From the NCBI GenBank assembly GCA_031416075.1, contig JANOSY010000019.1:1-29396 (forward strand): a stretch of 29,396 nucleotides of DNA, read 5' to 3'. The notes beneath the pieces are model-generated. The model was given only the letters and a program-made list of their open reading frames with translations, had not been told where the DNA came from and searched no databases. The translations under genes were made by a program, and so were the position numbers. Shown here piece by piece: positions 3,383 through 21,915 of this stretch; positions within the stretch are counted from its first letter, which is position 1, and each line of letters opens with the position of its first letter. Origin of the DNA: Candidatus Tenderia sp. Lineage in GTDB: Bacteria; Pseudomonadota; Gammaproteobacteria; Tenderiales; Tenderiaceae.

Positions 3383-3406
3383 CAGGATAAAGGTCTCGGT
3401 AATGGG

Positions 3407-5778: not shown

Positions 5779-5816
5779 AAAAGCCTGGCCCCAGAAATGG
5801 GGCTGGGCTTTTTTTT
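5779..5816 (+). terminator. intrinsic terminator after fbp
   Basis: Hairpin GCCTGGCCCCA-GAAA-TGGGGCTGGGC followed by T8. Confidence 0.9.
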
Positions 5817-5884
5817 GGCAGTAAATTGTATTTCGTTAAAAATTACATAATAACAATGAGGTATTGTATGACTATAAAAAACAC

Positions 5885-5961: not shown

Positions 5962-7809
5962 ATGACTAAACATGCAACACAGATAGAGTCAGTTAAGGCT
6001 ACTGAAGTTAATACCCAGGCAGACTTGCTGATCCGTTATTTACTGCAAGTAGGGGTGGATTACATTTTTGGTGTGCCGGGGGGGGCAATAGAGCCTTTGT
6101 ATGATGCGATTGGTCGCAATCTGCGCCGTTCGTTTGACCCCGAATCTTCCGAATCAGCCGAGACCAGCTTACTGCCCGTTCGCAGGCGTAACCGCCCACA
6201 GCAGATCCAGTCAGTAGTCGCCCGCCATGAGTCGGGTGCTGCTTTTATGGCAGATGGTTATGCCCGTGAAACCGGTAAAATCGGGGTCTGTTGCGCAACC
6301 ACCGGGCCAGGTGCAACTAACCTGCTTACCGGTGTTGCCGCCGCGTATGCCGACCATATACCGATGTTGGTGATTACCGGGCAAACGGCGCTGTCCAATT
6401 TTGGCCGGGGCGGTTTTCAGGAGTCCTCCAGTGATGCCATTGATATAGTAGGCATGTTTGAACACTGTACCCGCTACAACAGCCAGGTTTCACACCCCGA
6501 TCAACTGGAAGGCAAGCTCTATAAAGCGCTGTTACACGCCTTCAGATTGCCCAGAGGGCCGGTGCATTTGAGTATCCCTATGGATGTTTTCAAAGCGTCC
6601 TGCGCAAGAGGCACTGATTTGTACCCGATTGGGCAGCTGTTCCGGCGCTCAAAGACGGTGAGTGCAGAGTCCTATCAGGCACTGCTGAGCAAGGTTAATC
6701 AGGATAAAAAGCGGGTGCTGTTCATTGGCAGTGGCTGTAAGGATGCGATGGATGCGCTGATCGCCTTTGCTGAACATACCAATACCCCCATCGTAACAAC
6801 CCCGTCGGGCAAGGGGTTGATCAATAACTATCATCCGCTTTATCGTGGGGTGTTTGGTTTTGCTGGCCATGAAAGTGCACACAGAACCCTGCAGGATAAA
6901 GGGCTGGAGTTGATCATGGCTGTTGGTACCTCTTTGGGGGAGATGTCAACGGGCGGTTGGGATACGGCGATCCTGAACAGCAGATTGGTACACCTGTCGG
7001 CAACAGAAGAGGATTTTGACTACTCGCCAATGGCCTGTTTGCATGTATTGGGTGACCTGCAAACACTCTTTAACGGATTGCTCAAAGATCTGCCAGCCGT
7101 TACCAAAAAAGTAGCCATCGTTGCCAAGAGTGTTGCTCAGGCAGGTAATAGTTTGCCAACGGGGTTAAGTTTTCTGAGGGAAGAGGCGTTATCTTCAGAC
7201 GCTGTGCCGTTAAAACCACAACGGGTCATGCAAGAGTTAATGCGGCAGTTGCCTGACGATACCCGTTTTATTGTGGATGCGGGCAATGTCCTTGCTTGGG
7301 CAACCCATTATTTGATGTTGAATAGTGCTAATTTACACCGCACCTCCTTTGGCTTTGGTGCCATGGGTTGGGCGATAGGGGCGGCTGTTGGAACCGCGTT
7401 GGGATCGGGTAACAAACCGGTTGTCTGTATTACCGGGGATGGCAGCTATCTGATGAGCGGTCAGGAGATCAGCGTGGCGGTGGCTGAGCATCTACCAGTA
7501 CTGTTTATTGTGCTGAATGATCAGGCGTTGGGCATGGTTAAACATGGTCAACGCATGACCGGTGCTGAGTCGATAGGTTATACATTGCCAGTGGTGGATT
7601 TTGCACAAATAGCCCGCGCACAGGGGGCCAAGGCGTATACCATACGCACGGTTGAAGATTTTGAGCAGTTAGAGTGGACCGAGTTGTTGGTGGCTGCAGG
7701 CCCAACACTGCTGGATATTCAGATAGATCCGGAAGAGGTACCACCGATGAATGCCAGGGTTAAAACCTTGCGTAAGACAGGGGGTGGTTCTGATATCTGG
7801 ATGCCGTAA
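5962..7809 (+). CDS. thiamine-diphosphate-dependent enzyme (acetolactate synthase-like fold; function unknown)
   Basis: FGVPGG, RHE catalytic Glu, ADGYAR, TTGPGATN, FGAMGW and the GDGS...LND ThDP motif. No RFDDR motif and no adjacent regulatory subunit. Confidence 0.9.
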   Translation: MTKHATQIESVKATEVNTQADLLIRYLLQVGVDYIFGVPGGAIEPLYDAIGRNLRRSFDPESSESAETSLLPVRRRNRPQQIQSVVARHESGAAFMADGYARETGKIGVCCATTGPGATNLLTGVAAAYADHIPMLVITGQTALSNFGRGGFQESSSDAIDIVGMFEHCTRYNSQVSHPDQLEGKLYKALLHAFRLPRGPVHLSIPMDVFKASCARGTDLYPIGQLFRRSKTVSAESYQALLSKVNQDKKRVLFIGSGCKDAMDALIAFAEHTNTPIVTTPSGKGLINNYHPLYRGVFGFAGHESAHRTLQDKGLELIMAVGTSLGEMSTGGWDTAILNSRLVHLSATEEDFDYSPMACLHVLGDLQTLFNGLLKDLPAVTKKVAIVAKSVAQAGNSLPTGLSFLREEALSSDAVPLKPQRVMQELMRQLPDDTRFIVDAGNVLAWATHYLMLNSANLHRTSFGFGAMGWAIGAAVGTALGSGNKPVVCITGDGSYLMSGQEISVAVAEHLPVLFIVLNDQALGMVKHGQRMTGAESIGYTLPVVDFAQIARAQGAKAYTIRTVEDFEQLEWTELLVAAGPTLLDIQIDPEEVPPMNARVKTLRKTGGGSDIWMP

Positions 7810-8000
7810 TTGGCAACAGTGTGTTGGTCTGCTTTATTAACTAGAATTAAGAGTCGTTTAATTGTATATGTATTGTTCACAAAATTAGTTGAAAAAATCT
7901 ATTCAGTTACGAATCAAATAATTATTCTGTAGTGGGCAGGTGAGGGCAGGGCACGGGGGGCCTGTTTTTCCTGGGTGCAGGATTTAAATGGAGAGGCGTT

Positions 8001-10181
8001 GTGTTTAAACACAAGCAAAAAATGTTGGTTGTTCTGTGTAGCTTGGTGAGCGCGCAGCCTCAGGCCCAGATGGTGGTGGCACCGGACGATGATCTGTTGC
8101 AGCTCTATGGCAGCGAGGAGATGATCAGCATTGCCACCGGTACGCAGAAACCGATCCACCTGGCCCCTGCTGTTGCCAGTATTGTCACTGCTGCGGATAT
8201 CAAGGCGATGGGGGTGACCAGTCTGGATGAGGCGCTGGAGCTGATTCCTGGCTTGCATGTGTCCGTTTCAAATATTAATCGTCTTAATTCTGTGTATTCA
8301 ATTCGAGGAATTCATACGGGCAATAATGCTCAGGTATTGCTGACTATTAACGGTATTCCCTTGAAAGATACTTATACGGGTTCGCGACTGAACACTTTTC
8401 GCCTGCCAGCGGCGAATATATCCCGTATCGAGGTGATTCGTGGCCCTGGTTCTGCTGTGCATGGGGCTGATGCCTTTGCCGGTGTGATCAATGTTGTGAC
8501 CAAAGATGCAAAAGAGCTTAAGGGTGTTGTTGCGGGCGGGCGAATCGGATCGTTTGACTCCCAGGAGAGCTGGGTTCAATACGGTGGTCGTGCCGCTGAT
8601 TGGAATGTTGGTTTCAGTATGGAACATGCCATCAGTGATGGTGATCAAGCCAGAAGGGTAGACAGTGATGCGGCAACGGCGCTGGGCACATCTTTTGCGC
8701 CCGCTGCCCCCTTGCAGTCACGGTATAACATTCTCAATACCCGTATTGGTATAGCCAATGATGATTGGGATATCAGTCTCTGGAGCTGGATGCAACGGGA
8801 TGGTGGTACTGGTCCGGGCATAGCGCAGGCGATCGATCCGGTCGGAGGGGCTGAGATTGACTATTTTCAGTTGGATGTGAATTTTCGCTTCCCGGCTGAG
8901 TTGAACGGTTGGGCGATGGGTTCGCGGTTAAACATTCAGTATGAAACTGAGAAAAATGGGTATCTGATATTACCGCCAGGCTCAGTTCTGCCGGTGGGGG
9001 ATGATGGCAATATTGGCACCACACCTAATAGTGGCTGTCCGGTGGTGACAGGGTTGGGGAAGGCTTGTTTAGTGAGTTTTGTTGATGGTCTTTACGGCAG
9101 CCCGGGAGGAAGAGCTAATAACAGCAGCGCTGAATTGAATGGTCTTTATGATAAGCAGCGCAACCACTTGGTACGCCTTAGCGTTGGCTTTAGTCAGCAG
9201 CGTCTTTATGTATCAGAAACAAAAAACTTTGGCCCTGGCACACCTGCAGCACAAGTGGGAGAGGTGGCGGCTGGTTCTGGTGGCATCTGGGTTATTCCGG
9301 GTGTTTTAACCGACGTGACGGGGACAGCGGATGTGTTTATTGCTGATCAGATACGGGATGTCTGGTATCTTGCATTTCAGGATGAGTGGCAATTTGCGCC
9401 TGACTGGGAGCTGACCGGAGGGGTGCGTTATGACCATTACACTGAGTTTGGATCAACGGTGAATCCACGTTTGGCGCTGGTATGGGCGATGGATTACAAC
9501 CTGACCAGCAAACTGTTGCTGGGGTCGGCGTTTCGTGCCCCCTCCTTTGGTGAAGAGTTTGCCAAAAACAACCCCGTTGCCTTGGGCAATTCACAGTTGC
9601 GCCCCGAGACCATTAATACCGCAGAGATTGCGTTTGACTATCGCCCCAACTTTGATCTGCAGGAGATGTTTAATCTTTTCTACTACGAGGCGAAAGATCT
9701 GATTGATTATGGCACTACAACTAGCGGTGCCCAGGCCCAAAATCTGAATAATCAAAAGGGTTACGGTGTGGAGATGGAGTCAAAATGGAAGCCACTCGAC
9801 AGCTTAACGTTGGGCGCTGCGTTTGCCTGGCAACATTCGGAAGATATGCGGACCGGCGCACCGATTGCCGATGCACCAGGGCGGCAACTGTCGCTCTCGT
9901 TATTGTGGAAGGTACAGCCTGCCTGGTCGGTATATGGGAGTGCCAACTGGGTGGCGGATCGTAAGCGGGCAACCAATGACAGCCGTCCGCAGATTGATGA
10001 CTATACAGTTGTCAATGTAACCCTGCGCCGACGTCTGGGCCAGCAGTGGGAGCTGGCGGCATCATTGCGGAATCTCCTGGATGCGGATGCCCGTGAACCA
10101 AGCAGTGGTACCATCCCGAAGGATTTCCCCCTGGAGGGGCGTAGTCTCTATGCCGAGGTCCGTTATAACCTGACCAACTGA
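8001..10181 (+). CDS. TonB-dependent outer-membrane receptor
   Basis: Signal peptide; plug motifs ASIVTAADI, IRG and ISRIEVIRGPGSAVHGADAFAGVINVVTK; barrel motifs GVRYDHY, NPRLAL, AFRAPS, LRPE and NLLD...GRSLY. Confidence 0.93.
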   Translation: MFKHKQKMLVVLCSLVSAQPQAQMVVAPDDDLLQLYGSEEMISIATGTQKPIHLAPAVASIVTAADIKAMGVTSLDEALELIPGLHVSVSNINRLNSVYSIRGIHTGNNAQVLLTINGIPLKDTYTGSRLNTFRLPAANISRIEVIRGPGSAVHGADAFAGVINVVTKDAKELKGVVAGGRIGSFDSQESWVQYGGRAADWNVGFSMEHAISDGDQARRVDSDAATALGTSFAPAAPLQSRYNILNTRIGIANDDWDISLWSWMQRDGGTGPGIAQAIDPVGGAEIDYFQLDVNFRFPAELNGWAMGSRLNIQYETEKNGYLILPPGSVLPVGDDGNIGTTPNSGCPVVTGLGKACLVSFVDGLYGSPGGRANNSSAELNGLYDKQRNHLVRLSVGFSQQRLYVSETKNFGPGTPAAQVGEVAAGSGGIWVIPGVLTDVTGTADVFIADQIRDVWYLAFQDEWQFAPDWELTGGVRYDHYTEFGSTVNPRLALVWAMDYNLTSKLLLGSAFRAPSFGEEFAKNNPVALGNSQLRPETINTAEIAFDYRPNFDLQEMFNLFYYEAKDLIDYGTTTSGAQAQNLNNQKGYGVEMESKWKPLDSLTLGAAFAWQHSEDMRTGAPIADAPGRQLSLSLLWKVQPAWSVYGSANWVADRKRATNDSRPQIDDYTVVNVTLRRRLGQQWELAASLRNLLDADAREPSSGTIPKDFPLEGRSLYAEVRYNLTN

Positions 10182-10235
10182 TCTGTTGGCCAGGTATCAG
10201 CCTCTTGTGTCACAACATCGCCGTACATAAAGTGG

Positions 10236-10267
10236 TCACCATACCCGGTTATATTAGGGTATGGTGA
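10236..10267. repeat. perfect 11-bp inverted repeat upstream of the citrate-synthase-like pair
   Basis: TCACCATACCC-N10-GGGTATGGTGA; no long T tract follows. Confidence 0.8.
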
Positions 10268-10303
10268 TGTTCTGTTATGTCTGGTGTATGGAGGTGGATA
10301 GTC

Positions 10304-11116
10304 ATGGAGAGAAAAAGTGAGGTGCGGCGCAACGATCTGTTTGTAGAGCGGACCGCCACCAACATCTGGCAGGAGGTTGCAAGCCCCGATAATCCATATC
10401 TAACCGAGAGCGCCCGCTGTCACGGTTATGAGTTGATGGAGCTGGTTAAAAAACGGAGTTTTGTGGATGTTTTTTATCTAATGTTTCGTGGTGAGTTACC
10501 AGATGCCAATGAGGCGGTATTGTTGGAGCAGTTGATGATCGGGTTGATCAACCCCGGTCCTCGCCACCCTGCTGTACGGGCAGCGATGAACGCGGGTGTT
10601 GGCAGCAGCAGTGTGGAACATATTTTACCCATTGCCTTGACGATTTATGGTGGTGAACATCTTGGCGCGGCAGAGGTAGCGCCAGCGATGAGGTTTTTAA
10701 GAAAACATCGTAATCAAGATCCGCAGCTGTTAGTCCGCAAACTGTTTGAGGAGTGTGTGCCGCCCAGTGAGGGTGATTGGCACATCGTGCCGGGTTTTGG
10801 TAGCCGGTTTGGTGGTGTAGATGGGGTTGCGAAAAAAATTGCAGACCATTTGGATAGTCTGCCCGGCAATCACGAAACCTTAACGTGGGGGTGCAGATTT
10901 GCAGCTGCCCTGAACGGGTACTCGCAGGGGTGGTTGGCCCCGGCCATGGCGGCGGCGGTTTTTACCGATCTTGGGTTTAGCCCCCGTGCCGGTGCCGGGC
11001 TGTTTCAGCTGCTGGGGGCACCGGGACTGCTGGCCCATGGGGTGGAGCTGGCCAGCAAACCGATTACCGCCATGCCGTTTTTGAAGGATGAGAACTATGT
11101 CATCCAATATGAATAA
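10304..11116 (+). CDS. citrate synthase/citryl-CoA lyase-fold protein A (divergent)
   Basis: HGYELMELV..RSFVDVFYLMFRGELP, GGEHLGAA, VPGFG and DLGF...G.GLF match the citryl-CoA lyase-like fold. Start at ATG 10304 behind GGAGG; the ORF track starts at 10277. Confidence 0.78.
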   Translation: MERKSEVRRNDLFVERTATNIWQEVASPDNPYLTESARCHGYELMELVKKRSFVDVFYLMFRGELPDANEAVLLEQLMIGLINPGPRHPAVRAAMNAGVGSSSVEHILPIALTIYGGEHLGAAEVAPAMRFLRKHRNQDPQLLVRKLFEECVPPSEGDWHIVPGFGSRFGGVDGVAKKIADHLDSLPGNHETLTWGCRFAAALNGYSQGWLAPAMAAAVFTDLGFSPRAGAGLFQLLGAPGLLAHGVELASKPITAMPFLKDENYVIQYE

Positions 11117-11924
11117 CAACCCGTTCCAGTTTTGGGATAAACACCGTGGCACTATACGGAGCAAAAAAGGGGGCTGGGTGGTGGGTAAAGGGGTGTTCAG
11201 TCATGGCTACTCCATGATGGATGAACTGGTGGGCAAGGTTTCATATATGCAGGTTGTGATGCTTAATGCGACAGGCCGTCTGCCGCAGCGGCAGATTGCT
11301 GATTGGTGTGAGGCGGCATTTATTTGTTTGAGCTGGCCCGATCCACGTATCTGGTGCAATCAGATTGGTGCTTTGGGTGGCGCAGCCCGCACATCAGTGG
11401 TGGCGGCGACAACAGCGGGTATTTTGGCGGCAGATGCAAATTCATATGGAATAAAACCGTTGTTACTGGGTGTGCAGTTTATTCAGGACGCGATGCTGGA
11501 TTATAAAAATGGTGTGAGTGTTGATGAGATAGTAAAAAAGGAGTGCGCCAAACATCGTGGCAAACCTCATATCATGGGCTATGCACGGCCGATTGCCAAA
11601 GGGGATGAGCGGGTTGTAGCTATGAAGCGGGTTCAAAATGAGTTGGGGCTCTCTGATGGCGAGCATTTACGGCTTGCGTATCAAATTGAAGCGGTGTTGT
11701 TACGGGATTTTGATGAGAGCATGAATATCAACGGTTATGCGTCCGCCTTTCTCTCTGATCGGGGTCATACTGCTGGTGAGGTCAATCGAATATGCGCCGT
11801 AGTGGTGAGTAGCGGCGTCACCGCCTGTTACATCGATACACGGGACCGCCCGCCCGAGGCGTTTTTACCGTTACGTTGTGACGATATCGAATATACGGGC
11901 AAGCCAGCGCGGGCTGTGCCTTAA
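11109..11924 (+). CDS. citrate synthase/citryl-CoA lyase-fold protein B (divergent)
   Basis: HGYSMMDELVGKVSYMQ...GRLP, SWPDPRIWCN, IMGYARP...DER, MNIN and C-terminal IEYTG..R.VP. Probable start ATG 11109 overlaps the stop of gene A by 8 nt. Confidence 0.75.
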   Translation: MNNNPFQFWDKHRGTIRSKKGGWVVGKGVFSHGYSMMDELVGKVSYMQVVMLNATGRLPQRQIADWCEAAFICLSWPDPRIWCNQIGALGGAARTSVVAATTAGILAADANSYGIKPLLLGVQFIQDAMLDYKNGVSVDEIVKKECAKHRGKPHIMGYARPIAKGDERVVAMKRVQNELGLSDGEHLRLAYQIEAVLLRDFDESMNINGYASAFLSDRGHTAGEVNRICAVVVSSGVTACYIDTRDRPPEAFLPLRCDDIEYTGKPARAVP

Positions 11925-11945
11925 ACAGGTGTGCTATTTTTGCGG

Positions 11946-14435
11946 TTATGTGGTCAGGAGTGTTGCGATGCTCACGGGTTTGCTGATGGCATAACCTTGC
12001 AGGAAATCGACACCAATAATTTTCAGCTCGTTCATGATGGCCTCATTTTCAACATATTCGGCGATGGTTTTCAGGCCAAAGACATGGCCGATGTCGTTGA
12101 TTGATTTGACCATGGCGTGGTCGATGGGGTCCTCCATGATGCCTTTGATAAACATGCCATCAATTTTGAGGTAATCAACGGGCAGGTTTTTGAGGTAGGC
12201 ATAGGATGACATGCCACTGCCAAAGTCATCGAGTGCAAATGAGCAGCCCAGTTTTTTGATGTTAACAATGAACTGTATCGCCTCTTGAAGATTGTGGATG
12301 GCGGCTGTTTCGGTGATTTCAAAACAGAATTTTGTCGGTGGCAACTTATATTTTGCGAATGCCTGGCTGATAAAATTGACAAAACTTTGATCACCCAGAG
12401 TGAGACCGGACAGGTTGATAGAGCAGGTCTGCAGCCGGTCTAAACCGGCGGGATTTTGTGCAAACCAACGTAGGGTTGCATCCAGGACCCAGCGATCTAT
12501 TTTGGTGGCGATGTTGTAACGCTCCGCAGCGGGCAGAAACAGTGCCGGGGAGATCCAGTTGCCATCGGAGTCTTTCATTCGCAGCAATATTTCAATGTGG
12601 CTTGGGTAGGGGTATTCCCCTTTAAGCTCCAGAATGGTCTGGTAAAAGAGTGCAAAGCCATCATGTTCAAAGGCGTGGTTGATCTTTGAGACAACGTGCA
12701 TTTCGCTGCGCCGTTTTATCAGCTCCTGGTCGTCTACATGATAAAGGTGTATACGGCCACGTCCGCGCTCTTTGGCGATGTAGCAGGCGTTGTCAGCCAT
12801 GCTGAGTGCTTCGTTGACACTCAGTGTGTCGCGGGTGATGGGAACGACCCCAACACTGGCACCGACGGCGAAGGTGTTGTTGTCATAGACAAAGCGGTGT
12901 GCCTGAATGGCATCGCAGATCACCTGGGCGATACGAACGGCGGACTCGGCGGAGCACTCTTCGAGCAGCAGTACAAACTCATCGCCCCCAAATCGGGCGA
13001 GGGTGTCGTGATGGCGACGGATTTTGCCAAGGATGATGTTTTTGATCTGGCGCAGTAGCTGGTCGCCGGCAATGTGGCCGCAGGTATCGTTGATGACTTT
13101 GAACTGGTCGAGATCGATATAACAGAGTGCATATTCAACATCCTGATGCTGCTGCTCTTCCAGTACAACACGTAACCGTTCTTCAAAGGTGGTGCGGTTG
13201 GTCAGGCCGGTGAGCAGGTCATGTTTGGATTGGTACTCCAGCCGTTTTTCCAGCTGATCGGTATGGGTGATGTCGCGGAAGACCATGACGGCGCCGATGA
13301 TCTCATTCTGGCGGTTGCGTATGGGGGAGGTGACGTGATCCAGCTTGAGCTGCCGGTTATCGTGGTTGATAAAGGTGAGCTGTTTTGCACCGTAGACAGG
13401 ACGGCTTGATTCAAGACAGCTGGTGGCTGGGTCATTGCTTTCCGTGGCGGTTGAGTCGCTGGTGCCATGCAGTATCTCGTGTACGTGTTTACCGGCGGCA
13501 TCGCTCAGCGTCCAGCCGGAGATCCGTTCTGCGACCGGGTTCATGTACTCAATGGTGCCGCTAAGATCGGTGGTGATGACACCTTCGGCAATGGAGTGCA
13601 GTGTGACTTGCGCCAGCTCTTTTTCGTGGAACAGCGCCTCCTGGTTTTGGGCAAATTCGCGGTTGCTGACCAGAAAATCTTCACGTTGTACGGCGATTTC
13701 ACAGACACGTCGTAACTGTTCGGTACGAAAAGGTTTGGAGATAAAGTCAACCGCGCCATCGAGGATCAGTTCGCCAGCGCGTTCGGGTGAGGAGCGGGCG
13801 GTCATCATGACAACCGACTGTGCCGGATTAACTTTTATGATCTCCTGCAGTACTTCGCGGCCAGACATCTCTGGCAGCATGACATCGAGCAGCACAAGGT
13901 CATGGCGTCGTGCCAGCCACGCCTCCAATCCCGCTTTACCAGTGATGGTCACTTCGATGTCAAAGCGGTGGCTGAGCACACGTTTGATCAGTTCCACCGT
14001 ATCTAAATAGTCTTCAACCACCAGCAGGGAGCCCCTGGGGGTACCGCTGCTGTTGCTGGAGCGGAATATCTCATCGAGCACAGCAGGTAGAGTTGCCTGC
14101 GCCTGGAATGGGAGAAAGCGGTTAACTTCAAAGGCGTGACAGGTGGCGGCGGCGATGCGCTCGCTATGGATGCTGGAGACGATGATGATGGGGGTGTTGG
14201 CCGATATGGTTAATGCACCAGAACGAACCAGCCGGGCAAAGCGCCAGCCATCCAGTGTGCCCAGATCGACATCGCAGATAATGATGTCAATCTGTTTGAA
14301 ACTCAGAATATCGAAGGCCTCTTTGGTGGTGGTGGCTTCGGATAGCTCGGTGTAACCTGCGGCGTGCAACGTTGCCATCAGCGTGGCGCTCTGATCAACG
14401 TTGGGGGTAAATATTAATATCTGTTTGCTGAACAA
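11946..14435 (-). CDS. REC-REC-PAS-GGDEF-EAL c-di-GMP enzyme
   Basis: Atypical REC1 and canonical REC2 (VED, LLDVMLP, MTA, KPF); PAS domain (IAEGVITTD..MNP.AE); RHHD I-site and GGDEF; EAL motifs EIL, INLS, EITE, DDFGSG, KID, EYVE and QGY. Confidence 0.95.
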   Translation of the reverse strand: MFSKQILIFTPNVDQSATLMATLHAAGYTELSEATTTKEAFDILSFKQIDIIICDVDLGTLDGWRFARLVRSGALTISANTPIIIVSSIHSERIAAATCHAFEVNRFLPFQAQATLPAVLDEIFRSSNSSGTPRGSLLVVEDYLDTVELIKRVLSHRFDIEVTITGKAGLEAWLARRHDLVLLDVMLPEMSGREVLQEIIKVNPAQSVVMMTARSSPERAGELILDGAVDFISKPFRTEQLRRVCEIAVQREDFLVSNREFAQNQEALFHEKELAQVTLHSIAEGVITTDLSGTIEYMNPVAERISGWTLSDAAGKHVHEILHGTSDSTATESNDPATSCLESSRPVYGAKQLTFINHDNRQLKLDHVTSPIRNRQNEIIGAVMVFRDITHTDQLEKRLEYQSKHDLLTGLTNRTTFEERLRVVLEEQQHQDVEYALCYIDLDQFKVINDTCGHIAGDQLLRQIKNIILGKIRRHHDTLARFGGDEFVLLLEECSAESAVRIAQVICDAIQAHRFVYDNNTFAVGASVGVVPITRDTLSVNEALSMADNACYIAKERGRGRIHLYHVDDQELIKRRSEMHVVSKINHAFEHDGFALFYQTILELKGEYPYPSHIEILLRMKDSDGNWISPALFLPAAERYNIATKIDRWVLDATLRWFAQNPAGLDRLQTCSINLSGLTLGDQSFVNFISQAFAKYKLPPTKFCFEITETAAIHNLQEAIQFIVNIKKLGCSFALDDFGSGMSSYAYLKNLPVDYLKIDGMFIKGIMEDPIDHAMVKSINDIGHVFGLKTIAEYVENEAIMNELKIIGVDFLQGYAISKPVSIATLLTT

Positions 14436-14506
14436 ACCAACACTCCCTTGTGGTTATAAGACTGTATTGGGGCAGGATAGACAGTCCATCAAGTATATAG
14501 GGTGCC

Positions 14507-16084
14507 CTACCTATCGGCACTTCCCCGGCTTTCATTAAGAAATATTGGGATTGATACGGTAAACGTTGACCCTTGTTCAGGGGCGCTGGTGACACGTATG
14601 GTCCCTCCCATCAGTGTGCAGAACTGATGGGTGATTGCTAATCCCAGTCCAGTCCCCTCAAAGCGGCGAGTGATGCTGCTTTCAACCTGATAAAAGGGGT
14701 CAAAGATATGTTCGATCTGGCTTTCTGGTATGCCAATGCCACTATCCTTGATGATCAGTTGCAGCATTTTGGCACTCTGCGTCACGGTGAGCTGTATGAT
14801 GCCATGTTGGGTGAACTTGGTGGCATTGCTCAGCAAGTTGAGCAGGATCTGTCGTAACTTTGCCTCATCGATTACCAACAGCTCCGGTTGTAGCTGGAGT
14901 GTTGTTTCAAGTTGGTTGTGATTGTTTTTAAGCAGCGGTGTAATAGTCTCTATTACGCCACTGACAAGCAGGCGGATATTGGCGGGTGCCGGTTGCAGTG
15001 TCATTTGCCCCGACTCCAGTTTGGACATGTCAAGGATGGAGTTGATCATGGCCAATAGGTGGGTAGCATTGGCAGTAATGGTCTCCAGGTCGCGGCGGGT
15101 TTCACCCATTTCGGTGGGTAGATCCTCAAGGATCAGGTCGCTGTAACCGAGAATCGATTGTAACGGAGTGCGGAGCTCGTGGCTGACGCGGGAGAGAAAG
15201 TCAGATTTATTCTGGTTGGCTTGCACCGCTAAATCGCGGGTGTAGACCAGCTCCTGAGTCCGTTGGTTAACCTCATATTCGAGCATTTCATTGTGCTGCC
15301 GCAAACGGGTGTCGCGTTCGGCCAGGGCCTCCATCATCTTGTTGAAGGCGCGGCCAATGTTATGTACCTCGGTGGGTCCTTTCAAGGCTGCATAGCTTTG
15401 TGTATCACCATTTTCGGCCCGCTCCATCACCTTTGCCAACGCTGACAGCGGTTGGGTGAGACGTGAAAAGCTGCGCTGAACTATGAGCAGCAGGATAATG
15501 GCGATCAGGATGGTGATACCGAGATTGTTGGCAAAGGTGGCGGTAACGGTCTGTCCGAGTTTGGTTTTGCTTTTAATAACTACGACACTGCCCAATAGCT
15601 CAGGAAGGGTGTTATCGGGTTGTGCCAGTGAAACAGCGCTGTCGTCGGACTCAATCTGACTGTCACTGTAGACCGGCGCGATAAATATCCACTCAGCACC
15701 ATTCTCCTCTGCCAGTATTGCGGTTTTTTGTTCACCGGAAAGCTTGGGCAATTTGGTCAGGCTGAACCCTTTTTTGAGTAGCACGTTGCCGCTGTTGGTG
15801 AGCAGCGTGACTTGGCTGATGGAGGGAAACCCCAATGCAGCACTTAATGCCTCTTCAGCATTGTCGCCGCTGCCGTAGAGCAGTGATAATACCGACCGCT
15901 GGGCGACACTGTTGGTTACCTGGAGTCCATCTTCTACCATCTGATCATACACGTTGGAGGAGGTGACCCAGGCGGTGGTCAATGAGGTGCCAATCGCCAG
16001 CGCAAAAATACCGAGGGTGAAGGTAGTGGTGAGCTGTCTGCGAAAGCTGCTGTGTGATCTCTTGTTTATATTCATGGGGTGCAT
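14507..16084 (-). CDS. membrane-bound HAMP histidine kinase
   Basis: Two TM segments around a periplasmic domain; HAMP (PLSAL..E...IGRAFN.M); H-box SHELRTPL, N-box NLLSNA.KFT, G1 DSGIGI, F-box and G2 GTGLGL. Confidence 0.95.
   Translation of the reverse strand: MHPMNINKRSHSSFRRQLTTTFTLGIFALAIGTSLTTAWVTSSNVYDQMVEDGLQVTNSVAQRSVLSLLYGSGDNAEEALSAALGFPSISQVTLLTNSGNVLLKKGFSLTKLPKLSGEQKTAILAEENGAEWIFIAPVYSDSQIESDDSAVSLAQPDNTLPELLGSVVVIKSKTKLGQTVTATFANNLGITILIAIILLLIVQRSFSRLTQPLSALAKVMERAENGDTQSYAALKGPTEVHNIGRAFNKMMEALAERDTRLRQHNEMLEYEVNQRTQELVYTRDLAVQANQNKSDFLSRVSHELRTPLQSILGYSDLILEDLPTEMGETRRDLETITANATHLLAMINSILDMSKLESGQMTLQPAPANIRLLVSGVIETITPLLKNNHNQLETTLQLQPELLVIDEAKLRQILLNLLSNATKFTQHGIIQLTVTQSAKMLQLIIKDSGIGIPESQIEHIFDPFYQVESSITRRFEGTGLGLAITHQFCTLMGGTIRVTSAPEQGSTFTVSIPIFLNESRGSADR
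14511..14537 (-). promoter_or_regulatory. putative internal sigma-28 promoter for the GGDEF-EAL gene
   Basis: Minus strand reads TAAT-N15-GCCGATAG within the last codons of the kinase gene, about 75 nt upstream of the start at 14435. Confidence 0.55.
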
Positions 16085-16094
16085 CGATCAGCCA

Positions 16095-17039
16095 TTATCG
16101 TACTGGATAGACCACATCAAGCTCTTCCTCAACGGTTTTTGAGTAGGTAATCCCAAGGTGCGCGGCAGTACGACGGTTAAGTGAGATCTTAAGATCGTTA
16201 AGCGGGATGACCCGCCGCTGAGGGGTGGTCTCTGCTGCCTTTTCCAGTGCCAGTGTGGCCAAGCTGTTACCCATCTGCTGGTGATCAGGGAAGAGGGCAA
16301 AGAGGGCTCCGCGGCGGCTATGGGAGGGGTTATTGGAGAAAAGTATAAATTTGCGCTGCCAGGCGCTTTCAAGTGCCATGGGCAAAATGGTCTTATCGGG
16401 CAAAGTATTATCCAGCAGTAGCCAAACGCTATCACTGGGGCCGTTGGCCTGTTCAAGAATGGTTTTAAATTTATGTACGGCTTCACGAAGATCGTTAGCG
16501 GCATAGGCTTTTAACTCAATACCACGACTTTTTGCCGACTGCTGCGCCAGCCGCATGATCCAGCCACTGTTCTCCTCGTTGTAAACGGTAAATACCCGTT
16601 TGACGGTGGGGGCGATATCGGTGAGCTTGTTAAAAAACTGCTCAGGCGCCCCTAACAGACTGATACCGTTATGGTCACCGGGTGTGATCAGCAGTCCGCC
16701 GTGGACGATAGGAATCTCGCTCTGTAATATGTGTACAAGATCGTAGCTCTGCTTGCCCAGCGCAATGACGGCGCTAATATCGTTACGGCGGATGTAGCGG
16801 CTGATCTCCTGTGCGGTTGTTGATGGTTGTATTACCAAGGTGGCGTAATCAGCTTTTGGGTGGGCTGCGATACCAGCGATGATCTCATCGAAGATTTGAT
16901 CATAGGCCGGATTGATCTTGGGGTAGACCACCAGCAGCTTGGGTGGGGTGGCAGCTTGAGATGCAAAAGCGATCAGCAGGCCAAACATGGCCACTGCCAA
17001 TCCTTTTACAAGTCGCCGTACTAGAGTAGCGGTGATCAA
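16095..17039 (-). CDS. periplasmic ABC-type substrate-binding protein, with no permease or ATPase nearby
   Basis: Signal peptide (..ASQA-AT); VIALG, KRVFTVYN, RRGALFALFPD..QMG..LA and LNRRTAAHLG resemble the ABC_sub_bind family; 10 nt upstream of the kinase gene. Confidence 0.75.
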   Translation of the reverse strand: MITATLVRRLVKGLAVAMFGLLIAFASQAATPPKLLVVYPKINPAYDQIFDEIIAGIAAHPKADYATLVIQPSTTAQEISRYIRRNDISAVIALGKQSYDLVHILQSEIPIVHGGLLITPGDHNGISLLGAPEQFFNKLTDIAPTVKRVFTVYNEENSGWIMRLAQQSAKSRGIELKAYAANDLREAVHKFKTILEQANGPSDSVWLLLDNTLPDKTILPMALESAWQRKFILFSNNPSHSRRGALFALFPDHQQMGNSLATLALEKAAETTPQRRVIPLNDLKISLNRRTAAHLGITYSKTVEEELDVVYPVR

Positions 17040-17176: not shown

Positions 17177-19918
17177 CTATTGAGGCACGCTGAAGAGCGT
17201 AGGGTCATCTCTTTTTAGTTCTAACAGCTTTTTAAACTCATCTGTACTCATTTTTGGTTTGGAGAATGTTGGCATTACCACGTTGACTACATTGTTAAGC
17301 TGCTGCTCCGTACCATCCTGATAGCGAATATAGAGATGGTAGCTGCCAGGTACCACTGTTGCCGGCAGTGTAAAACGGCCGTCAGCCGCCTCTTTAAGGC
17401 GGATAGACGGCAGCAGCCGTAGTGCGGTGATGGTGGTGGCACCGCTCAGGTAGAGTACCCCTTCATGGAGCCGCAGCCGATTAACCCTGTTTAACATCGG
17501 ATAATGTTCGATAATCTTGAGCGTTGTTGGTTCAAGTCGCATCACCTCGTACTCACCGCTGACGATTAGCGTCTTTCCTGCATGGGCAATGGCGTGAATG
17601 GCGCGGTTCAGTGTCCGTTCTGATTGTAGTGTGATCTCGGTTTTACTCACCTCAAACTGGAGCAGCTGGGTACCGTGGCCAACGTAGAGGGTATCGCCCA
17701 CCGCCAGCAGTGGCCCGGTCTCACCAGTGAGTGGGTGGTATCCCAGCGCTGCCACTTTGCCAGTGGCATCCACACCATAACGGTGCAGGCCATCGTGGCT
17801 GGCGACAATCAGACCATGGCTGGTCAGGGCGATGGCACTGGCCTTGAGGTTGATGCGCGCCAGCTGGCGCGGCAGTTTGGGGCTGCTGATGTCATAGAGC
17901 AGCACCCCTTGCAGTTCATCGAGCAGCCAGAGGTGGTTCTGATCGACGATGACATCGACAACACGGCCATCGGTCGGCGTGGTACTGAGCCAGCGCGCCT
18001 CGAAGGGGTTGCCGATGTCGGCAATCGCCAGACCGCCATCCCCCATCGCCAGATAGGCGCGGCCATTTGCCAGGGCGATACGTCGGGCATCACCGGGGAA
18101 GTTAACACCGGTGATCCAGGTGGGGTTGAGCGGGTTGTTGATATCGAAGATCTGCAAGCCGTTGCTGCCCTGGGCCACAAAGGCGTAATTATCCTGAGTG
18201 GTAATGTCATTCACACGACCACGCTCGTGGTAGTCCCCCACTACATGCACGGCGGCAGGATCGCTGACATCGAGCACCGCAATGCCGCCCCACCAATCCA
18301 TGGCAAAGAGGTGGTTACCCTCCACCTTCAGCCCCCAGGTGGCACCACGGGTATCAAAACTGCTGACGACCTTGGGTACCTTGAGATTGCTGATATCGAG
18401 GATATGAATCCCCGCCAGCCAGCTGGCGACATAGAGTTTGTCGCCGATCAGGTCGAGGCCGCGGCTGTTGCCGGGCAGGGCGGTGTGGCTGAGCACCTTG
18501 GGTGCAGCCGGGTCAGCGATATCGAGTACGTAGACGCCGTCATCAAAAAAGGCCACAAAGGCGATGTTGTCACGGATCATCACCTCCTCCGCCGCTGTGC
18601 CGGGGGTGAACTGGCCGAGTAGCTGCGGCGCTTTGGCATCTTTCACATCAAAGATCAGCAGGCCGGTATCGTCATCGGCGACGTAGAGCCGCTCGCCCTG
18701 AATCTCCAGTGACCACGCCTTGCCGGGGGTATCGACTTCGCTGAGTTGTTCTGGCTTGGCAGGATCACTGACGTCGATGATCTGAAAGCCGCCGCGATGG
18801 CTGGCAAGGTAGAGCAGATCGCCCGCCAGCTTCGGCGTGTAACCGAGGCCGCCGGTCTGAATGTGCGAGATCAGCTTTGGCGCACGCGGATTTTTTACAT
18901 CAATGATCTGCAGCCCATGGTCATCGTCCGGCACATAGGCGACGTTGTCGCGCACCACCATCCCCTTAGGCGAGCCGGGAGTATGAAAGCTGGAGAGCAG
19001 CAGCGGCAGGTGGGGGTTGCTGATGTCGTAGAGGTGGATGCCGGAGAACCAGTCGGCCACATAGGCGATGTGGTTGGCGATGAAGACGCGGCGCTCACCG
19101 CCAAAGTTGACCCCTTGGCCAAAGTTCAGCCCCTCGTTGCTGATTTGTGGCATGGGGGCGCTGAAGTCGATCACATCGATGGTGTTGTCGGTACGCAGAT
19201 AGACGTTCTGGTCAAACCAGGCCAGGTCACGCACCGCCGTCGCGCTGCGCCAGGCGTTGATCACCGTCGGCTCCGCCGGGTTGTTGATGTCGATGAGGTA
19301 GACAATGCCGCCGTCGCTCAGCGCCAGCACCTTGTCATCAGCGGCGACCACACGCACGATGCGCCCCAGCTTCTGGTGGCTGCCGCGCCAGCGTGGATAT
19401 TTGGCGTCACTGATGTCGAGCACCGTGACGCCATTTCTGTCGTTGGCGAGGATGGCCAGGGAATCGACCACCACCAGGTCGTGCAGTGGCGCGGGGGCGC
19501 GGTAGCGACCGGTCACCTTGGCCTGTTTCTGTTGGGCCGAATAGAGCACCAGCTCGTTACCCTGTTCGATGCGAAGCCCCTGGCCATTTTGCTGCACTGT
19601 GGGGGGTGAGGTGTTGAAGTGTGCCGCCTCCACGCCCTCCGGCCCCATCTGTTGTAACAGGTGCAGGCCATCAGGTTGGTTGATCAGGGTGTAGTCGCCA
19701 TGGCTACCGGGGGTCAGTGGCAGCTGTTGCAGCAGATGGGGGCCACCGGGCAGCAGGCTGATCTGCTGGATTGTTCTGGCATCTACCCCGTGTAACTGGA
19801 GCGTGGCCTCCTTACCAACGGTGACGGTGGTTGGTGTGATCTCAATCGCGGCCATGGCTGATGGAGTCAGGCTGGAGGCGAGCAGGAGGGCGACTAATAA
19901 GGGTTGCTTATAAGACAA
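17177..19918 (-). CDS. secreted LVIVD-repeat (beta-propeller-like) protein
   Basis: Signal peptide (..SAMA-A); about 13 recognisable ~42-aa repeats of the form G..LYVA....GL.I.DIS.P..P. Confidence 0.88.
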   Translation of the reverse strand: MSYKQPLLVALLLASSLTPSAMAAIEITPTTVTVGKEATLQLHGVDARTIQQISLLPGGPHLLQQLPLTPGSHGDYTLINQPDGLHLLQQMGPEGVEAAHFNTSPPTVQQNGQGLRIEQGNELVLYSAQQKQAKVTGRYRAPAPLHDLVVVDSLAILANDRNGVTVLDISDAKYPRWRGSHQKLGRIVRVVAADDKVLALSDGGIVYLIDINNPAEPTVINAWRSATAVRDLAWFDQNVYLRTDNTIDVIDFSAPMPQISNEGLNFGQGVNFGGERRVFIANHIAYVADWFSGIHLYDISNPHLPLLLSSFHTPGSPKGMVVRDNVAYVPDDDHGLQIIDVKNPRAPKLISHIQTGGLGYTPKLAGDLLYLASHRGGFQIIDVSDPAKPEQLSEVDTPGKAWSLEIQGERLYVADDDTGLLIFDVKDAKAPQLLGQFTPGTAAEEVMIRDNIAFVAFFDDGVYVLDIADPAAPKVLSHTALPGNSRGLDLIGDKLYVASWLAGIHILDISNLKVPKVVSSFDTRGATWGLKVEGNHLFAMDWWGGIAVLDVSDPAAVHVVGDYHERGRVNDITTQDNYAFVAQGSNGLQIFDINNPLNPTWITGVNFPGDARRIALANGRAYLAMGDGGLAIADIGNPFEARWLSTTPTDGRVVDVIVDQNHLWLLDELQGVLLYDISSPKLPRQLARINLKASAIALTSHGLIVASHDGLHRYGVDATGKVAALGYHPLTGETGPLLAVGDTLYVGHGTQLLQFEVSKTEITLQSERTLNRAIHAIAHAGKTLIVSGEYEVMRLEPTTLKIIEHYPMLNRVNRLRLHEGVLYLSGATTITALRLLPSIRLKEAADGRFTLPATVVPGSYHLYIRYQDGTEQQLNNVVNVVMPTFSKPKMSTDEFKKLLELKRDDPTLFSVPQ

Positions 19919-21297: not shown

Positions 21298-21915
21298 TTA
21301 AAACAGCGCGGCGTAACGGCGTGCCGCGCTCTGGATATCCGGTTGGCCAAACACCCCCTGTACCACGGCCAGCATATCAGCACCGGCGGCGATTAGATCA
21401 GCGCCATTCTCAGGTGTGATGCCGCCAATGGCGACCACCGGGAGGTTGAGTTCGTGGCGGCTGCGTAACAGTAGCTCAGGTGTGGCGTGTACAGCAGCAG
21501 GTTTGGTGGCCGATGGAAAAAAGGCACCAAAGGCGATGTAGTCAGCCCCGTCTCTTGCCGCGGCCTCCGCCAGTGCCCACTCATTGTAACAAGAGAGACC
21601 AATAATGCCGTCCCTCAGTTGCTGACGTGTCTCTTTTACAGTGCCATCACCTCGGCCAAGGTGGATACCGTCAGCACCAATGGCGGCGGCCAGCGCCACG
21701 TCATCATTGATAATAAAGGTTACACCGTGTTGGCGGCAGAGTGTCAGTAATGCCTCGGCCTCCTGTCGGCGACGTGAGGGCTGGTCACTTTTGTCGCGGT
21801 ATTGAATAATCCGGGCACCACCGTGAATCGCCTGTTCTGCGGCGACCAGCAGCTGGCCATGGGGGCTGAGCGTGCTATCGGTAATGGCATAGAGTCCGCG
21901 TAAACGGCTGCTCAC
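21298..21915 (-). CDS. thiE: thiamine-phosphate synthase
   Basis: Motifs LYAITD, QYRDK, IINDD, GIHLG, S.TKP and VAIGGIT; 4-nt overlap with thiD. Confidence 0.95.

Follow-up and report, generated by a model that had tools for sequence, protein, structure and literature searches.

Comparison of gene neighbourhoods across genomes shows that a predicted ThDP enzyme, two citrate-synthase-fold proteins (CCL1 and CCL2), a TonB-dependent receptor, an orphan PF04392 binding protein and a membrane sensor with a PDC domain are inherited and rearranged together, forming one module. In the window, a stretch of 29,396 nucleotides from Candidatus Tenderia sp., all seven open reading frames are present, and a four-gene run on the + strand (5962-11924) converges on a three-gene run on the - strand (17039-11946). 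We consider it rather probable that the cytoplasmic enzymes make a small acid that re-enters through the receptor, is captured by the orphan binding protein and acts on the PDC-type sensor to set c-di-GMP, the product and the binding steps being those parts of the scheme that we infer.

5790-5807: terminator-like hairpin of fbp, just before the promoter match
5815..5843, + strand: sigma-70-like promoter match upstream of the ThDP gene (consensus match only)
5962..7809, + strand: ThDP-dependent carboligase-type enzyme, 615 aa (Pfam N, M and C domains)
8001..10181, + strand: TonB-dependent outer-membrane receptor, 726 aa (Pfam plug and barrel, signal peptide)
10277..11116, + strand: CCL1, citrate-synthase-fold protein, 279 aa (match to PDB 6hxp)
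11088..11924, + strand: CCL2, second, more divergent citrate-synthase-fold protein, 278 aa (match to PDB 6hxp)
11946..14435, - strand: REC-REC-PAS-GGDEF-EAL response regulator with predicted c-di-GMP output, 829 aa (Pfam, motifs in the translation)
14507..16084, - strand: membrane sensor histidine kinase with HAMP, 525 aa (Pfam, translation, domain model)
16095..17039, - strand: orphan periplasmic solute-binding protein, PF04392, 314 aa (Pfam, signal peptide)

The reading frames of CCL1 and CCL2 overlap by 29 nt, and the two runs end with 21 bp between their stop codons (11922-11924 and 11946-11948), as the preliminary description had it; its domain assignments for the seven proteins likewise hold in Pfam and NCBIfam. 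By consensus matching, sigma-70-like sites are no more numerous in the region than in shuffles. That description also saw the locus as inserted between housekeeping blocks. The housekeeping flanks are indeed there, with pgl, folA, thyA, lgt, an RNA methyltransferase gene and fbp to the left, and genes for an LVIVD-repeat protein and a class-III aminotransferase, followed by thiE and thiD, to the right. The insertion is not borne out: because the G+C content of the module is ordinary (0.519 vs 0.528 for the genome, with 31% of 11-kb windows as low or lower) and five other genomes of the family carry the module at the identical site, between fbp and the LVIVD gene, it is an old resident rather than a recent arrival.

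We then surveyed an even sample of the class, comprising about 400 Gamma- and Betaproteobacterial genomes, with the ThDP enzyme, CCL2 and the binding protein as markers. These were found in 47/400, 42/400 and 55/401 genomes, respectively, the ThDP search having scored three candidates per genome with at least one false negative (G137). The binding protein is also present in 43 of the 47 genomes with a ThDP orthologue, all three markers occur together in 35 genomes from 25 families, and every ThDP/binding-protein pair on one contig lies within 15 kb (29/29), as does every such CCL2/binding-protein pair (32/32), although these counts overstate the statistical weight because related genomes are not independent. 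The preliminary description had staked its reading on the enzyme and sensory genes co-occurring in other genomes; the reading stands up strongly, with enzyme, receptor and sensory genes found together in at least 25 families of the class.

Of nine loci from relatives, five hold all seven genes between fbp and the LVIVD gene, and two more reach the contig edge after CCL2. A ThDP-profile search of other species yielded 60 loci, 59 of them with a ThDP match over at least half of the query; where at least 8 kb was available on both sides, CCL2, the receptor and the binding protein were all present in 29 of 34. Gene order is variable, 26 of 38 full loci are wholly co-directional, and the sensor gene follows the binding-protein gene by no more than 400 nt in 34 of 40 cases. 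One locus from another family (G034, L015), for example, presents a tight co-directional run of ThDP enzyme, methyltransferase, receptor, binding protein and kinase, and another class of the phylum has the receptor, CCL1, CCL2, ThDP enzyme, binding protein and a hybrid kinase in yet another order. Unbiased clustering of all ORFs of 67 loci recovered as conserved families only the ThDP enzyme (59 loci), receptor (50), CCL2 (45), binding protein (36) and CCL1 (33), together with the sensor/output forms, an SDR in nine loci and an OMT in five. The same 67 loci share neither an exporter nor an ABC permease nor a transcription factor, and the genes that flank the module are not conserved either.

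The module is not always complete. Three genomes that are 98-100% complete (G317, G339 and G090) have the sensor side only, their ThDP matches being only ALS-level, and the first of these retains the receptor with the sensor genes and no enzyme genes; in a further genome (G060) the binding protein survives next to ThDP and CCL2 genes that are broken. Conversely, the enzyme trio occurs without receptor and binding protein in three loci (L086, L087 and L056), the ThDP and CCL2 genes lie far apart in two genomes where the binding protein was not found (G193 and G357), and one locus (L014) has the ThDP orthologue alone. Nor is the c-di-GMP output universal, since the kinase of G034 is a plain one that lacks a neighbouring GGDEF-EAL gene, and a hybrid kinase is present in the variant from the other class. 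No NCBIfam model reaches its cut-off for the module, and neither the literature nor the NCBIfam models yielded a characterised system with this gene set, in agreement with what had been claimed for it.

The ThDP enzyme matches PF02776, PF00205 and PF02775, all above cut-off, corresponding to the N-terminal pyrimidine-binding, middle and C-terminal diphosphate-binding domains, and has no signal peptide. E90, G492-D493-G494 and N519-D520 are invariant in 12 orthologues; E90 and the GDG...N(N/D) stretch correspond to the catalytic Glu and the cofactor motif of ThDP enzymes. The closest solved structures are those titled ‘ThDP-dependent HKA synthase’ (8x3x/8xod; 310 bits, 34% identity; Z 40.1 and rmsd 19.1 Å over 502 residues for our model), and in the PDB the HKA synthases BbmA/CsmA (8x3x, 8xod and 8x3z; 310 and 273 bits) outrank ALS (210 bits). 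The model itself (pLDDT 68) aligns with Z 36-40 to many structures of ALS and pyruvate-oxidase type, at an rmsd of 17-19 Å over about 480-500 residues. The window enzyme shares with BbmA/CsmA and with ALS the three-domain ThDP fold and the cofactor-binding and catalytic Glu motifs; it differs from BbmA/CsmA, to which identity is about one third, in an additional stretch of about 25 residues (about 52-80) ahead of the catalytic-Glu helix. For the substrates of BbmA/CsmA we follow the PDB entry title. An acetolactate synthase identity was considered and rejected: the best model, TIGR00118, gives 331.4 bits vs a cut-off of 538.35, AlsS (NF006378) gives 259 vs 510, the rest are relatively lower, and every NCBIfam model, ALS and ScyA included, remains under its cut-off.

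CCL1 and CCL2, neither of which has a signal peptide, both match the citryl-CoA lyase 6hxp over nearly their full length (E 1.9e-16 and 7e-7, respectively; about 220-245 residues aligned). On the citryl-CoA-lyase NCBIfam models, whose cut-offs are 212-261, they score one quarter to one third of what is called for: CCL1 78.4 bits vs 212, with Pfam Citrate_synt at 23.2 vs 27, and CCL2 55.8 bits vs 245, with no Pfam match. The catalytic His, His and Asp, placed by the alignment to 6hxp, are absent from the window proteins and are not kept across 36 CCL2 and 33 CCL1 orthologues. The first His is unconserved in both families, the His of the GYGHR stretch is Ser in the window CCL1 and an invariant Arg in CCL2, and the Asp of the LNVDG stretch is missing from both. 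Each family has invariants of its own, namely N92, G94, R96, P249, G250 and H254 in CCL1, and P84, W89, N91, R167, P168, D173-E174-R175 and C247 in CCL2. The claim that all three enzymes deviate from their canonical relatives is therefore upheld, both by the sub-threshold NCBIfam scores of the ThDP enzyme and the CCL proteins and by the absence from the latter of the catalytic residues of 6hxp. Natural CCL1-CCL2 fusion proteins exist (four clear and one weaker among nine long matches), for which reason CCL2 is probably the partner of CCL1 in a heterodimer. The fold is homologous to that of citrate synthase and citryl-CoA lyase, and the CCL proteins are likewise probably dimeric, but the three catalytic positions of those enzymes are not retained; lacking them, CCL1 and CCL2 may not be enzymes at all.

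In the receptor, a signal peptide is followed by a TonB-box-like stretch, a plug (PF07715, 56-162) and a 22-strand-barrel domain (PF00593, 376-692), both Pfam domains being above cut-off. Every NCBIfam receptor family stays under its cut-off, the best of the partial matches being with receptors for heme, siderophores and B12. We also considered a TonB-dependent transducer and rejected it, as Pfam detects no N-terminal signalling extension and only about 30 residues separate the signal peptide from the plug.

The binding protein, whose translation begins with a Sec signal peptide, matches PF04392 at 45.1 bits vs a cut-off of 25.9, and its nearest structure is 3lkv (E 4.8e-9). Neither an ABC permease nor an ATPase lies close to its gene in the window, and the earlier view of it as a binding protein with no transporter extends to relatives: none of the 40 loci holding the gene has a transporter, and no permease or ATPase is conserved in the 67 loci. 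The three PF04392 proteins with solved ligands in Table 1 of PMC10443332 have L-Trp, L-Tyr or L-Phe bound.

The kinase is composed of a transmembrane segment, a periplasmic PDC/sCache-type domain (about 43-185), a second transmembrane segment, HAMP, HisKA and HATPase, and its phospho-accepting His, H302, is invariant in 35 orthologues. Pfam sCache_4 matches the sensor domain weakly and in relatives only (E 1e-4 to 5e-4). The model of the periplasmic domain (pLDDT 88.7) finds its best fold match in the CitA sensor domain (2j80; Z 12.5, rmsd 2.5 Å, 111 residues), followed by CdgS9 (4u64, Z 11.2), LuxQ (3c38, Z 8.2) and many PDC/Cache domains; as modelled, it is a PDC fold, common to CitA and LuxQ. 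PDC domains can themselves bind small ligands, as in CitA.

The output protein, a predicted c-di-GMP enzyme, consists of a divergent receiver-like domain, a canonical REC, PAS, GGDEF with an RxxD I-site, and EAL; its GGDEF and EAL domains are above the Pfam cut-off, and its translation contains the GGDEF, RxxD, EILLR and DDFGSG motifs. In relatives, GGDEF is intact in 39/42 output proteins and EAL in 40/42. Two loci (L028 and L036) encode a single HAMP-HisKA-HATPase-REC-Hpt-REC-GGDEF-EAL protein, in which kinase and c-di-GMP enzyme are fused, and in three others (L035, L039 and L049) the same sensor domain is joined straight to HAMP-PAS-GGDEF-EAL, directly after the binding-protein gene. Nearly all sensors from Gamma- and Betaproteobacteria terminate in GGDEF-EAL. 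These natural fusions of kinase and output in relatives back the proposal that the window kinase is tied to the c-di-GMP protein.

Several known systems resemble parts of this arrangement. In the LuxS/LuxP-LuxQ system of Vibrio, which responds to autoinducer-2, a transporter-less periplasmic binding protein serves as co-sensor of a kinase and the ligand is self-made. The window sensor-domain model aligns to LuxQ and also to the LuxP-LuxQ complex (2hj9, Z 8.0), but LuxQ has two tandem periplasmic domains whereas the window kinase has one, and the binding-protein families differ. LuxPQ also lacks a TonB-dependent receptor, has LuxS rather than ThDP and citrate-synthase-like proteins as its synthase, and has as its output a phosphorelay that leads to a transcription factor in place of c-di-GMP. 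As a LuxQ equivalog the window kinase was rejected (221.8 bits vs an NCBIfam cut-off of 1200). In NspS-MbaA of Vibrio cholerae, the periplasmic domain of a membrane GGDEF-EAL protein is the point at which an orphan binding protein exerts control, a logic matched by the kinase-less variants described above. The ligands of NspS are polyamines, and NspS belongs to a different binding-protein family; furthermore, NspS-MbaA is without the co-encoded enzymes, TonB-dependent receptor and kinase step found in the window. The kinase TorS likewise relies on TorT, a binding protein of the periplasm, and the best NCBIfam scores of the window kinase core are to TorS-type models, although the sensor part of TorS is helical whereas the window sensor fold is PDC, and TorS senses a respiratory substrate with transcription as its output. 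A TorS equivalog was rejected as well (TIGR02956, 232.5 bits vs 676.5). Finally, in siderophore signalling of the FecA-FecR-FecI type, a self-made secreted compound is detected as it returns, its entry point being a dedicated TonB-dependent receptor whose gene adjoins those for biosynthesis. The window receptor differs in having no N-terminal signalling extension, an anti-sigma/ECF-sigma pair is not conserved in the 67 loci, and it is in the periplasm, by a binding protein and a PDC sensor, that the signal would be detected here.

In the scheme that we propose, the enzymes would be producers and not consumers of the ligand, the receptor would let the ligand through, the sensor would be the docking site of the binding protein, and c-di-GMP levels would change; the analogy with quorum sensing is used here as a model. 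Accessory SDR and methyltransferase genes, enzymes without signal peptides and the lack of a conserved inner-membrane importer are signs of biosynthesis. By analogy with the ‘HKA synthases’, the cytoplasmic ThDP enzyme would join two 2-oxo acids into an alpha-hydroxy-beta-keto acid. The putative CCL1/CCL2 heterodimer, with the citrate-synthase fold and a remodelled active site, would bind and convert that tertiary-alcohol acid. Some lineages may use a short-chain dehydrogenase and an O-methyltransferase to tailor the product, which would then exit the cell. At low outside concentration, the dedicated receptor would pump the product back across the outer membrane for capture by the periplasmic binding protein, and the loaded binding protein might then dock on the kinase through its PDC domain, in the manner of LuxP and LuxQ. 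In response, the kinase would alter the phosphorylation state of the output protein at its second receiver domain and so tip c-di-GMP turnover towards synthesis or towards breakdown. A self-made, shared small molecule would thus be reported and a lifestyle switch driven, with sensor-only genomes as putative listeners. The lack of a conserved exporter or transcription factor speaks against this scheme where product release and any feedback are concerned.

Alternatively, the enzymes could make a small polycarboxylate or hydroxy-acid chelator, whose metal-loaded form the receptor retrieves while the binding protein and sensor monitor supply only. A dedicated TonB-dependent receptor, here with partial matches to heme, siderophore and B12 receptors, is typical of chelator uptake, biosynthesis genes beside a receptor are the usual siderophore layout, and the genome with receptor and sensor genes alone (G317) recalls siderophore piracy; in addition, citrate-like alpha-hydroxy acids could arise from citrate-synthase-fold proteins acting with a 2-oxo-acid carboligase. 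We nevertheless regard such a metallophore as unlikely. An inner-membrane ABC importer, a reductase and an exporter are not conserved in the 67 loci, and the conserved output is c-di-GMP turnover rather than an iron-type regulator. Upstream of 59 ThDP genes there is no enrichment of Fur-box-like sites, and the intergenic regions of the window contain none that scores at least 13/19, both being weak tests by consensus matching. The ligands tabulated for the binding-protein family in PMC10443332 are, moreover, aromatic amino acids only.

It seems less likely again that the locus serves foraging or catabolism, with the receptor importing a compound made by others, the binding protein and kinase sensing it, and the ThDP and CCL proteins cleaving C-C bonds. 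Going by family names, ThDP enzymes and citryl-CoA-lyase-type proteins can act as lyases, many utilisation loci combine a TonB receptor, a sensor and enzymes, and both sensor-only and enzyme-only genomes occur. The enzymes are cytoplasmic, yet an inner-membrane transporter is not conserved; the accessory methyltransferases and SDR are typical tailoring enzymes, the ThDP enzyme has synthases as its closest solved relatives, the residues for lyase catalysis are missing from the CCL proteins, and the output is c-di-GMP rather than an induced catabolic regulator. That two unrelated operons, one for the enzymes and receptor and one for sensing, happen to abut in this lineage is hardly credible: they converge in the window, so that co-transcription is not required, and within the family plain vertical synteny could account for the arrangement, but in many other families the genes are co-directional and tightly packed (26/38 full loci), same-contig ThDP/binding-protein pairs never exceed 15 kb (29/29), and orders differ while flanks do not match.

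Returning to a self-made signal read through c-di-GMP, we tentatively suggest, at somewhat less than even confidence, that the module represents an unnamed, widespread family of extracellular signalling systems, present in about a tenth of the sampled Gamma- and Betaproteobacterial genomes and in at least one other class. Its new type of signal would come from a ThDP carboligase and a remodelled citrate-synthase-fold heterodimer, be gated by its own TonB-dependent receptor and be read by a binding-protein/PDC pair wired to c-di-GMP, with listener-only genomes and two deep variants in chemistry, namely CCL types A and B, in which SDR or methyltransferase tailoring may be present or absent. If true, bacterial cell-cell or cell-environment signalling would be extended by a signal chemistry and a route of perception that are both new, the route being active outer-membrane uptake and then a periplasmic binding protein from which a c-di-GMP switch takes its cue. 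An orphan branch of PF04392 binding proteins would gain a function. So would one branch of citrate-synthase-fold proteins, in which the classical catalytic residues have been replaced and new chemistry may be hidden. With three to five enzymes and with carriers among cultured strains, the small module is directly testable. Judging from record titles, its carriers belong to groups of environmental importance that include methane, sulfur and iron oxidisers, hydrocarbon degraders and denitrifying Rhodocyclaceae.

Open reading frame calls in the window recover the seven genes as the preliminary description, made from the sequence alone, had set them out, with 21 bp separating the ends of the two gene runs, and its domain calls were all borne out by Pfam and NCBIfam. 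The module, flanked as described by ordinary housekeeping genes, comprises the following features, of which CCL1 and CCL2 are two citrate-synthase-fold proteins related to citryl-CoA lyase.

Features of the module in the window (ORF calls; Pfam and NCBIfam domains)
5962-7809, + strand: ThDP enzyme
8001-10181, + strand: TonB-dependent receptor
10277-11116, + strand: CCL1 (~279 aa), overlapping CCL2
11088-11924, + strand: CCL2 (~279 aa), overlapping CCL1
17039-16095, - strand: PF04392 binding protein
16084-14507, - strand: HAMP histidine kinase
14435-11946, - strand: REC-REC-PAS-GGDEF-EAL output protein, 829 aa

The further proposal that the module had been inserted did not hold, as its G+C content is 0.519 versus 0.528 for the genome, and the same site between fbp and the gene for an LVIVD-repeat protein is used in other genera of the family. 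In the family members that have no ThDP match (G002, G004, G006, G009 and G013) the fbp match is absent as well, the whole region being unassembled there, and in genome G003 the contig stops directly after the receptor gene. The LVIVD-repeat/beta-propeller protein (913 aa, 17177-19918, - strand) adjoins the binding-protein gene, a position kept in two genomes of the same genus, G001 (locus L009) and G003 (L079), and in G008 (L012) of the same family, with partial conservation in G007 (L011); by ORF clustering it lies outside the module in other families. The thiE and thiD genes (thiamine-phosphate synthase and HMP-P kinase; 21298-22769, - strand) lie 4 kb from the ThDP enzyme gene, which is probably a coincidence since the pairing is unseen in other families; an Rfam scan found no TPP riboswitch in the window, nothing within the module, and two weak sub-threshold matches elsewhere. 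Promoter and terminator scans gave no more matches than shuffled sequences did. The sole trace of a mobile element in the window is a DDE transposase fragment (PF01609, 125 aa, 28782-29159, - strand) at the right end, after rho and 11 kb from the module, and a plasmid collection searched with CCL2 returned no match. A 495-aa frame (2873-4360, + strand), antisense to lgt and a methyltransferase gene in a stretch of ~59% G+C, is most likely spurious.

We show that the seven genes are functionally coupled. The preliminary description had named cross-genome co-occurrence as a test, and the enzyme and sensory genes do co-occur, and stay close, across the class. Among nine loci fetched from the window's family and its relatives, five hold all seven genes, two reach a contig end after CCL2 and one (L014) has only the ThDP gene; in another family, the ThDP, methyltransferase, receptor, binding-protein and kinase genes of locus L015 (genome G034) are closely packed and all point the same way. 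A scan with the ThDP profile, using one genome per species, gave 61 loci, of which one belongs to a same-genus MAG and the other 60 were analysed. In this sample, biased by selection on similarity to the ThDP enzyme of the window, the ThDP match covers at least half of the query in 59 of 60 loci, CCL2, receptor and binding protein are all found in 29 of the 34 loci with at least 8 kb on either side (the exceptions being L053, L056, L058, L067 and L068), 26 of 38 full loci are entirely co-directional, and the sensor gene follows the binding-protein gene within 400 nt in 34 of 40 cases. Clustering of all ORFs from 67 loci identified as conserved the module's own families together with an SDR (nine loci) and an O-methyltransferase (five loci), and no conserved exporter, ABC permease, TonB complex, DNA-binding regulator or common flanks.

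An even sample of the class (~400 genomes) provides a less biased test. The binding protein was detected in 55 of these genomes, CCL2 in 42 and a ThDP orthologue in 47, the last from a search that scored three candidates per genome only and for which G137 is a false negative. ThDP enzyme and binding protein occur together in 43 genomes, and all 29 pairs on the same contig lie no more than 15 kb apart, the remaining 14 being split between contigs in draft assemblies; 39 genomes have both CCL2 and the binding protein, with all 32 same-contig pairs again within 15 kb. All three are present in 35 genomes from 25 families. These tallies take in two unpublished genomes, G055 (three genes) and G157 (binding protein only), and the conclusions are independent of both. 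Across the phylum, CCL2 was found in 11 of 401 sampled genomes, nine of them from other classes, and two of the four loci fetched from this sample have the order receptor, CCL1, CCL2, ThDP, binding protein, hybrid kinase. Among the named carriers are Dechloromonas, Collimonas, Pelomonas, Uliginosibacterium, Aquabacterium, Catenovulum, Colwellia, Porticoccaceae, Cycloclasticus, Methylococcaceae, Gallionella/Sideroxydans and a Desulfuromonadales MAG. Cultured strains in which the complete locus forms a single co-directional run include Dechloromonas hankyongensis XY25 (L028), Collimonas humicola RLT1W51 (L060), Pelomonas candidula BYS78W (L076), Uliginosibacterium sp. H1 (L075) and Catenovulum sediminis D2 (L059). 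The distance matrices of the components give positive Mantel correlations (r 0.25-0.80, p <= 0.002, 25 loci), which are inseparable from shared phylogeny and were discounted as evidence of co-evolution.

All three ThDP-enzyme domains are present in the ThDP enzyme (Pfam), and its catalytic Glu and cofactor motif are invariant among 12 orthologues. It falls under the cut-off of all 55 NCBIfam models that it touches, and its closest solved relatives are BbmA (8x3x/8xod), whose entries are titled 'ThDP-dependent HKA synthase', and CsmA (8x3z); it scores 310 and 273 bits against these HKA synthases, at 34% identity, versus at most 210 bits for acetolactate synthases. Its structure model is of middling quality (pLDDT 68). 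Homology to citryl-CoA lyase 6hxp extends along the entire length of CCL1 (E 1.9e-16) and of CCL2 (E 7e-7), and neither family keeps the residues at the His, His and Asp positions of 6hxp, which we take to be catalytic from what is known of citrate synthase; each family has its own distinct set of invariant residues. Across loci, the CCL pair is of two deeply separated types, sharing 42-72% or 25-32% identity with CCL2 of the window. A profile search of 1.84 billion representatives revealed a small family, with 180 clusters at E <= 1e-30. CCL2-like clusters in the ESM Atlas carry automatic 'putative citrate synthase' names only. Among nine long matches from the profile search, four proteins (P0043, P0047, P0102 and P0149), and more weakly P0121, join a CCL1-like N-terminus to a CCL2-like C-terminus, fusions that support a putative CCL1/CCL2 heterodimer. 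In another protein from this search, P0007 (523 aa), both of the tandem halves resemble CCL2; it could represent either two gene calls merged into one or a variant akin to a homodimer.

On the sensory side, the receptor has a signal peptide, a TonB-box-like stretch, a plug and a barrel, and no N-terminal signalling extension by Pfam or on reading of its N-terminus. The binding protein carries a Sec signal peptide; the only solved ligands of PF04392 proteins listed in Table 1 of PMC10443332 are aromatic amino acids. In the kinase, two membrane helices flank a periplasmic domain of ~140 residues, modelled (pLDDT 88.7) as a PDC/single-Cache fold that best matches the domain with which CitA senses citrate (2j80; Z 12.5, rmsd 2.5 A over 111 residues), with LapD-type 4u64 (Z 11.2), DctB and LuxQ 3c38 (Z 8.2) next. 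A complex prediction for binding protein residues 30-314 with kinase periplasmic residues 43-185, both with alignments, scored 0.03 against a mark of 0.32 and speaks neither for nor against binding. In the output protein the second of the receiver domains is canonical, GGDEF is intact and includes an RxxD I-site, and EAL-type motifs are present. Across loci the sensor side takes three forms: a split kinase and output protein, as in the window; single proteins of 1340-1520 aa with the order sensor domain-HAMP-kinase-REC-Hpt-REC-GGDEF-EAL (L028 and L036); and the same sensor domain and HAMP joined straight to PAS-GGDEF-EAL with no kinase (L035, L039 and L049). Of 42 output proteins, 39 retain an intact GGDEF and 40 an intact EAL motif, from which the predicted output of the module in Gamma- and Betaproteobacteria is c-di-GMP turnover; the exceptions are G034, with a plain kinase, and the other-class variant, with a hybrid kinase.

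On balance we favour a reading in which the module makes a small molecule and senses its return. The cytoplasmic enzymes would build a small acid from 2-oxo acids, which the TonB-dependent receptor would pump into the periplasm, there to be sensed by the binding protein and the PDC sensor, as suggested by a dedicated receptor, a transporter-less binding protein and a PDC sensor occurring together; the sensor/output fusions suggest that the signal would end in c-di-GMP control. Aromatic 2-oxo acids are frequent substrates of the ThDP carboligases found in secondary metabolism. With the aromatic ligands tabulated for solved PF04392 proteins, this makes an aromatic hydroxy-keto acid a reasonable guess at the product, and no more. 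The molecule might instead be a metal chelator with a monitoring sensor, which we regard as unlikely. In a weak test, a 19-base Fur-box consensus scored p <= 0.05 against shuffles upstream of two of 59 ThDP genes, about the chance level, and the intergenic regions of the window hold no site that matches it at 13 or more of the 19 bases. A role in taking in and degrading a foreign compound is still less probable; biosynthesis is favoured because the enzymes are cytoplasmic, the accessory genes encode tailoring enzymes, the nearest solved relatives are synthases and there is no conserved inner-membrane importer. Beside the recurrence of the genes across families, chance adjacency of the two gene runs is very improbable indeed.

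The proposed make-and-sense module would use a binding protein in the role of co-sensor, as do LuxS/LuxPQ, NspS-MbaA and TorT-TorS, and, like siderophore surface signalling, would detect a compound of its own making when this re-enters through a TonB-dependent receptor. It belongs to none of these systems, because its kinase scores far under the cut-offs of the LuxQ and TorS NCBIfam models, the transducer extension of siderophore surface signalling is absent from its receptor, clustering of the 67 loci showed no conserved sigma/anti-sigma pair, and its enzymes fit no curated NCBIfam family. Searches of a literature collection with few subscription journals returned nothing on BbmA/CsmA or on this gene set, and either may still have been described in print. 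Binding-protein-dependent signalling is a known kind, here coupled to a small biosynthetic set; the proposed entry route and the enzymes are probably new.

Enlarged and partial modules also occur. Some genomes of the window's family additionally carry another ThDP paralogue, an SDR and one more receptor; in one genus of this family (L010, 6078-8866 and 10524-14870; L013, 5608-7488) the stretch from the output gene to CCL2 contains the second ThDP paralogue (50-51% identity) and the SDR, and receptor genes occur as a tandem pair in L010 and L016. Sensor-only genomes (G317, G339 and G090) have ThDP matches at the ALS level only. In the complete genome G060 (G060:C1:3410924-3419349), an intact binding-protein gene stands beside broken ThDP pieces and a CCL2 gene with an internal TGA, an arrangement suggestive of decay on the enzyme side and retention on the sensor side. 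Enzyme-only loci are L086, L087 and L056. In another class, L086 (7230-16801) has, after ThDP-CCL1-CCL2, a gene for a 1727-aa Ser/Thr kinase-AAA_16(STAND)-GAF-HisKA_3-HATPase protein and one for a LuxR-type response regulator; it lacks both receptor and binding protein, and may represent a variant of the same scheme in which sensing is cytoplasmic. Finally, in L051 (5777-15705, a Sideroxydans MAG) the CCL pair is 71-72% identical to that of the window, and the ThDP enzyme, receptor and binding protein only 34-46%, unequal identities that suggest an exchange of module parts between lineages.
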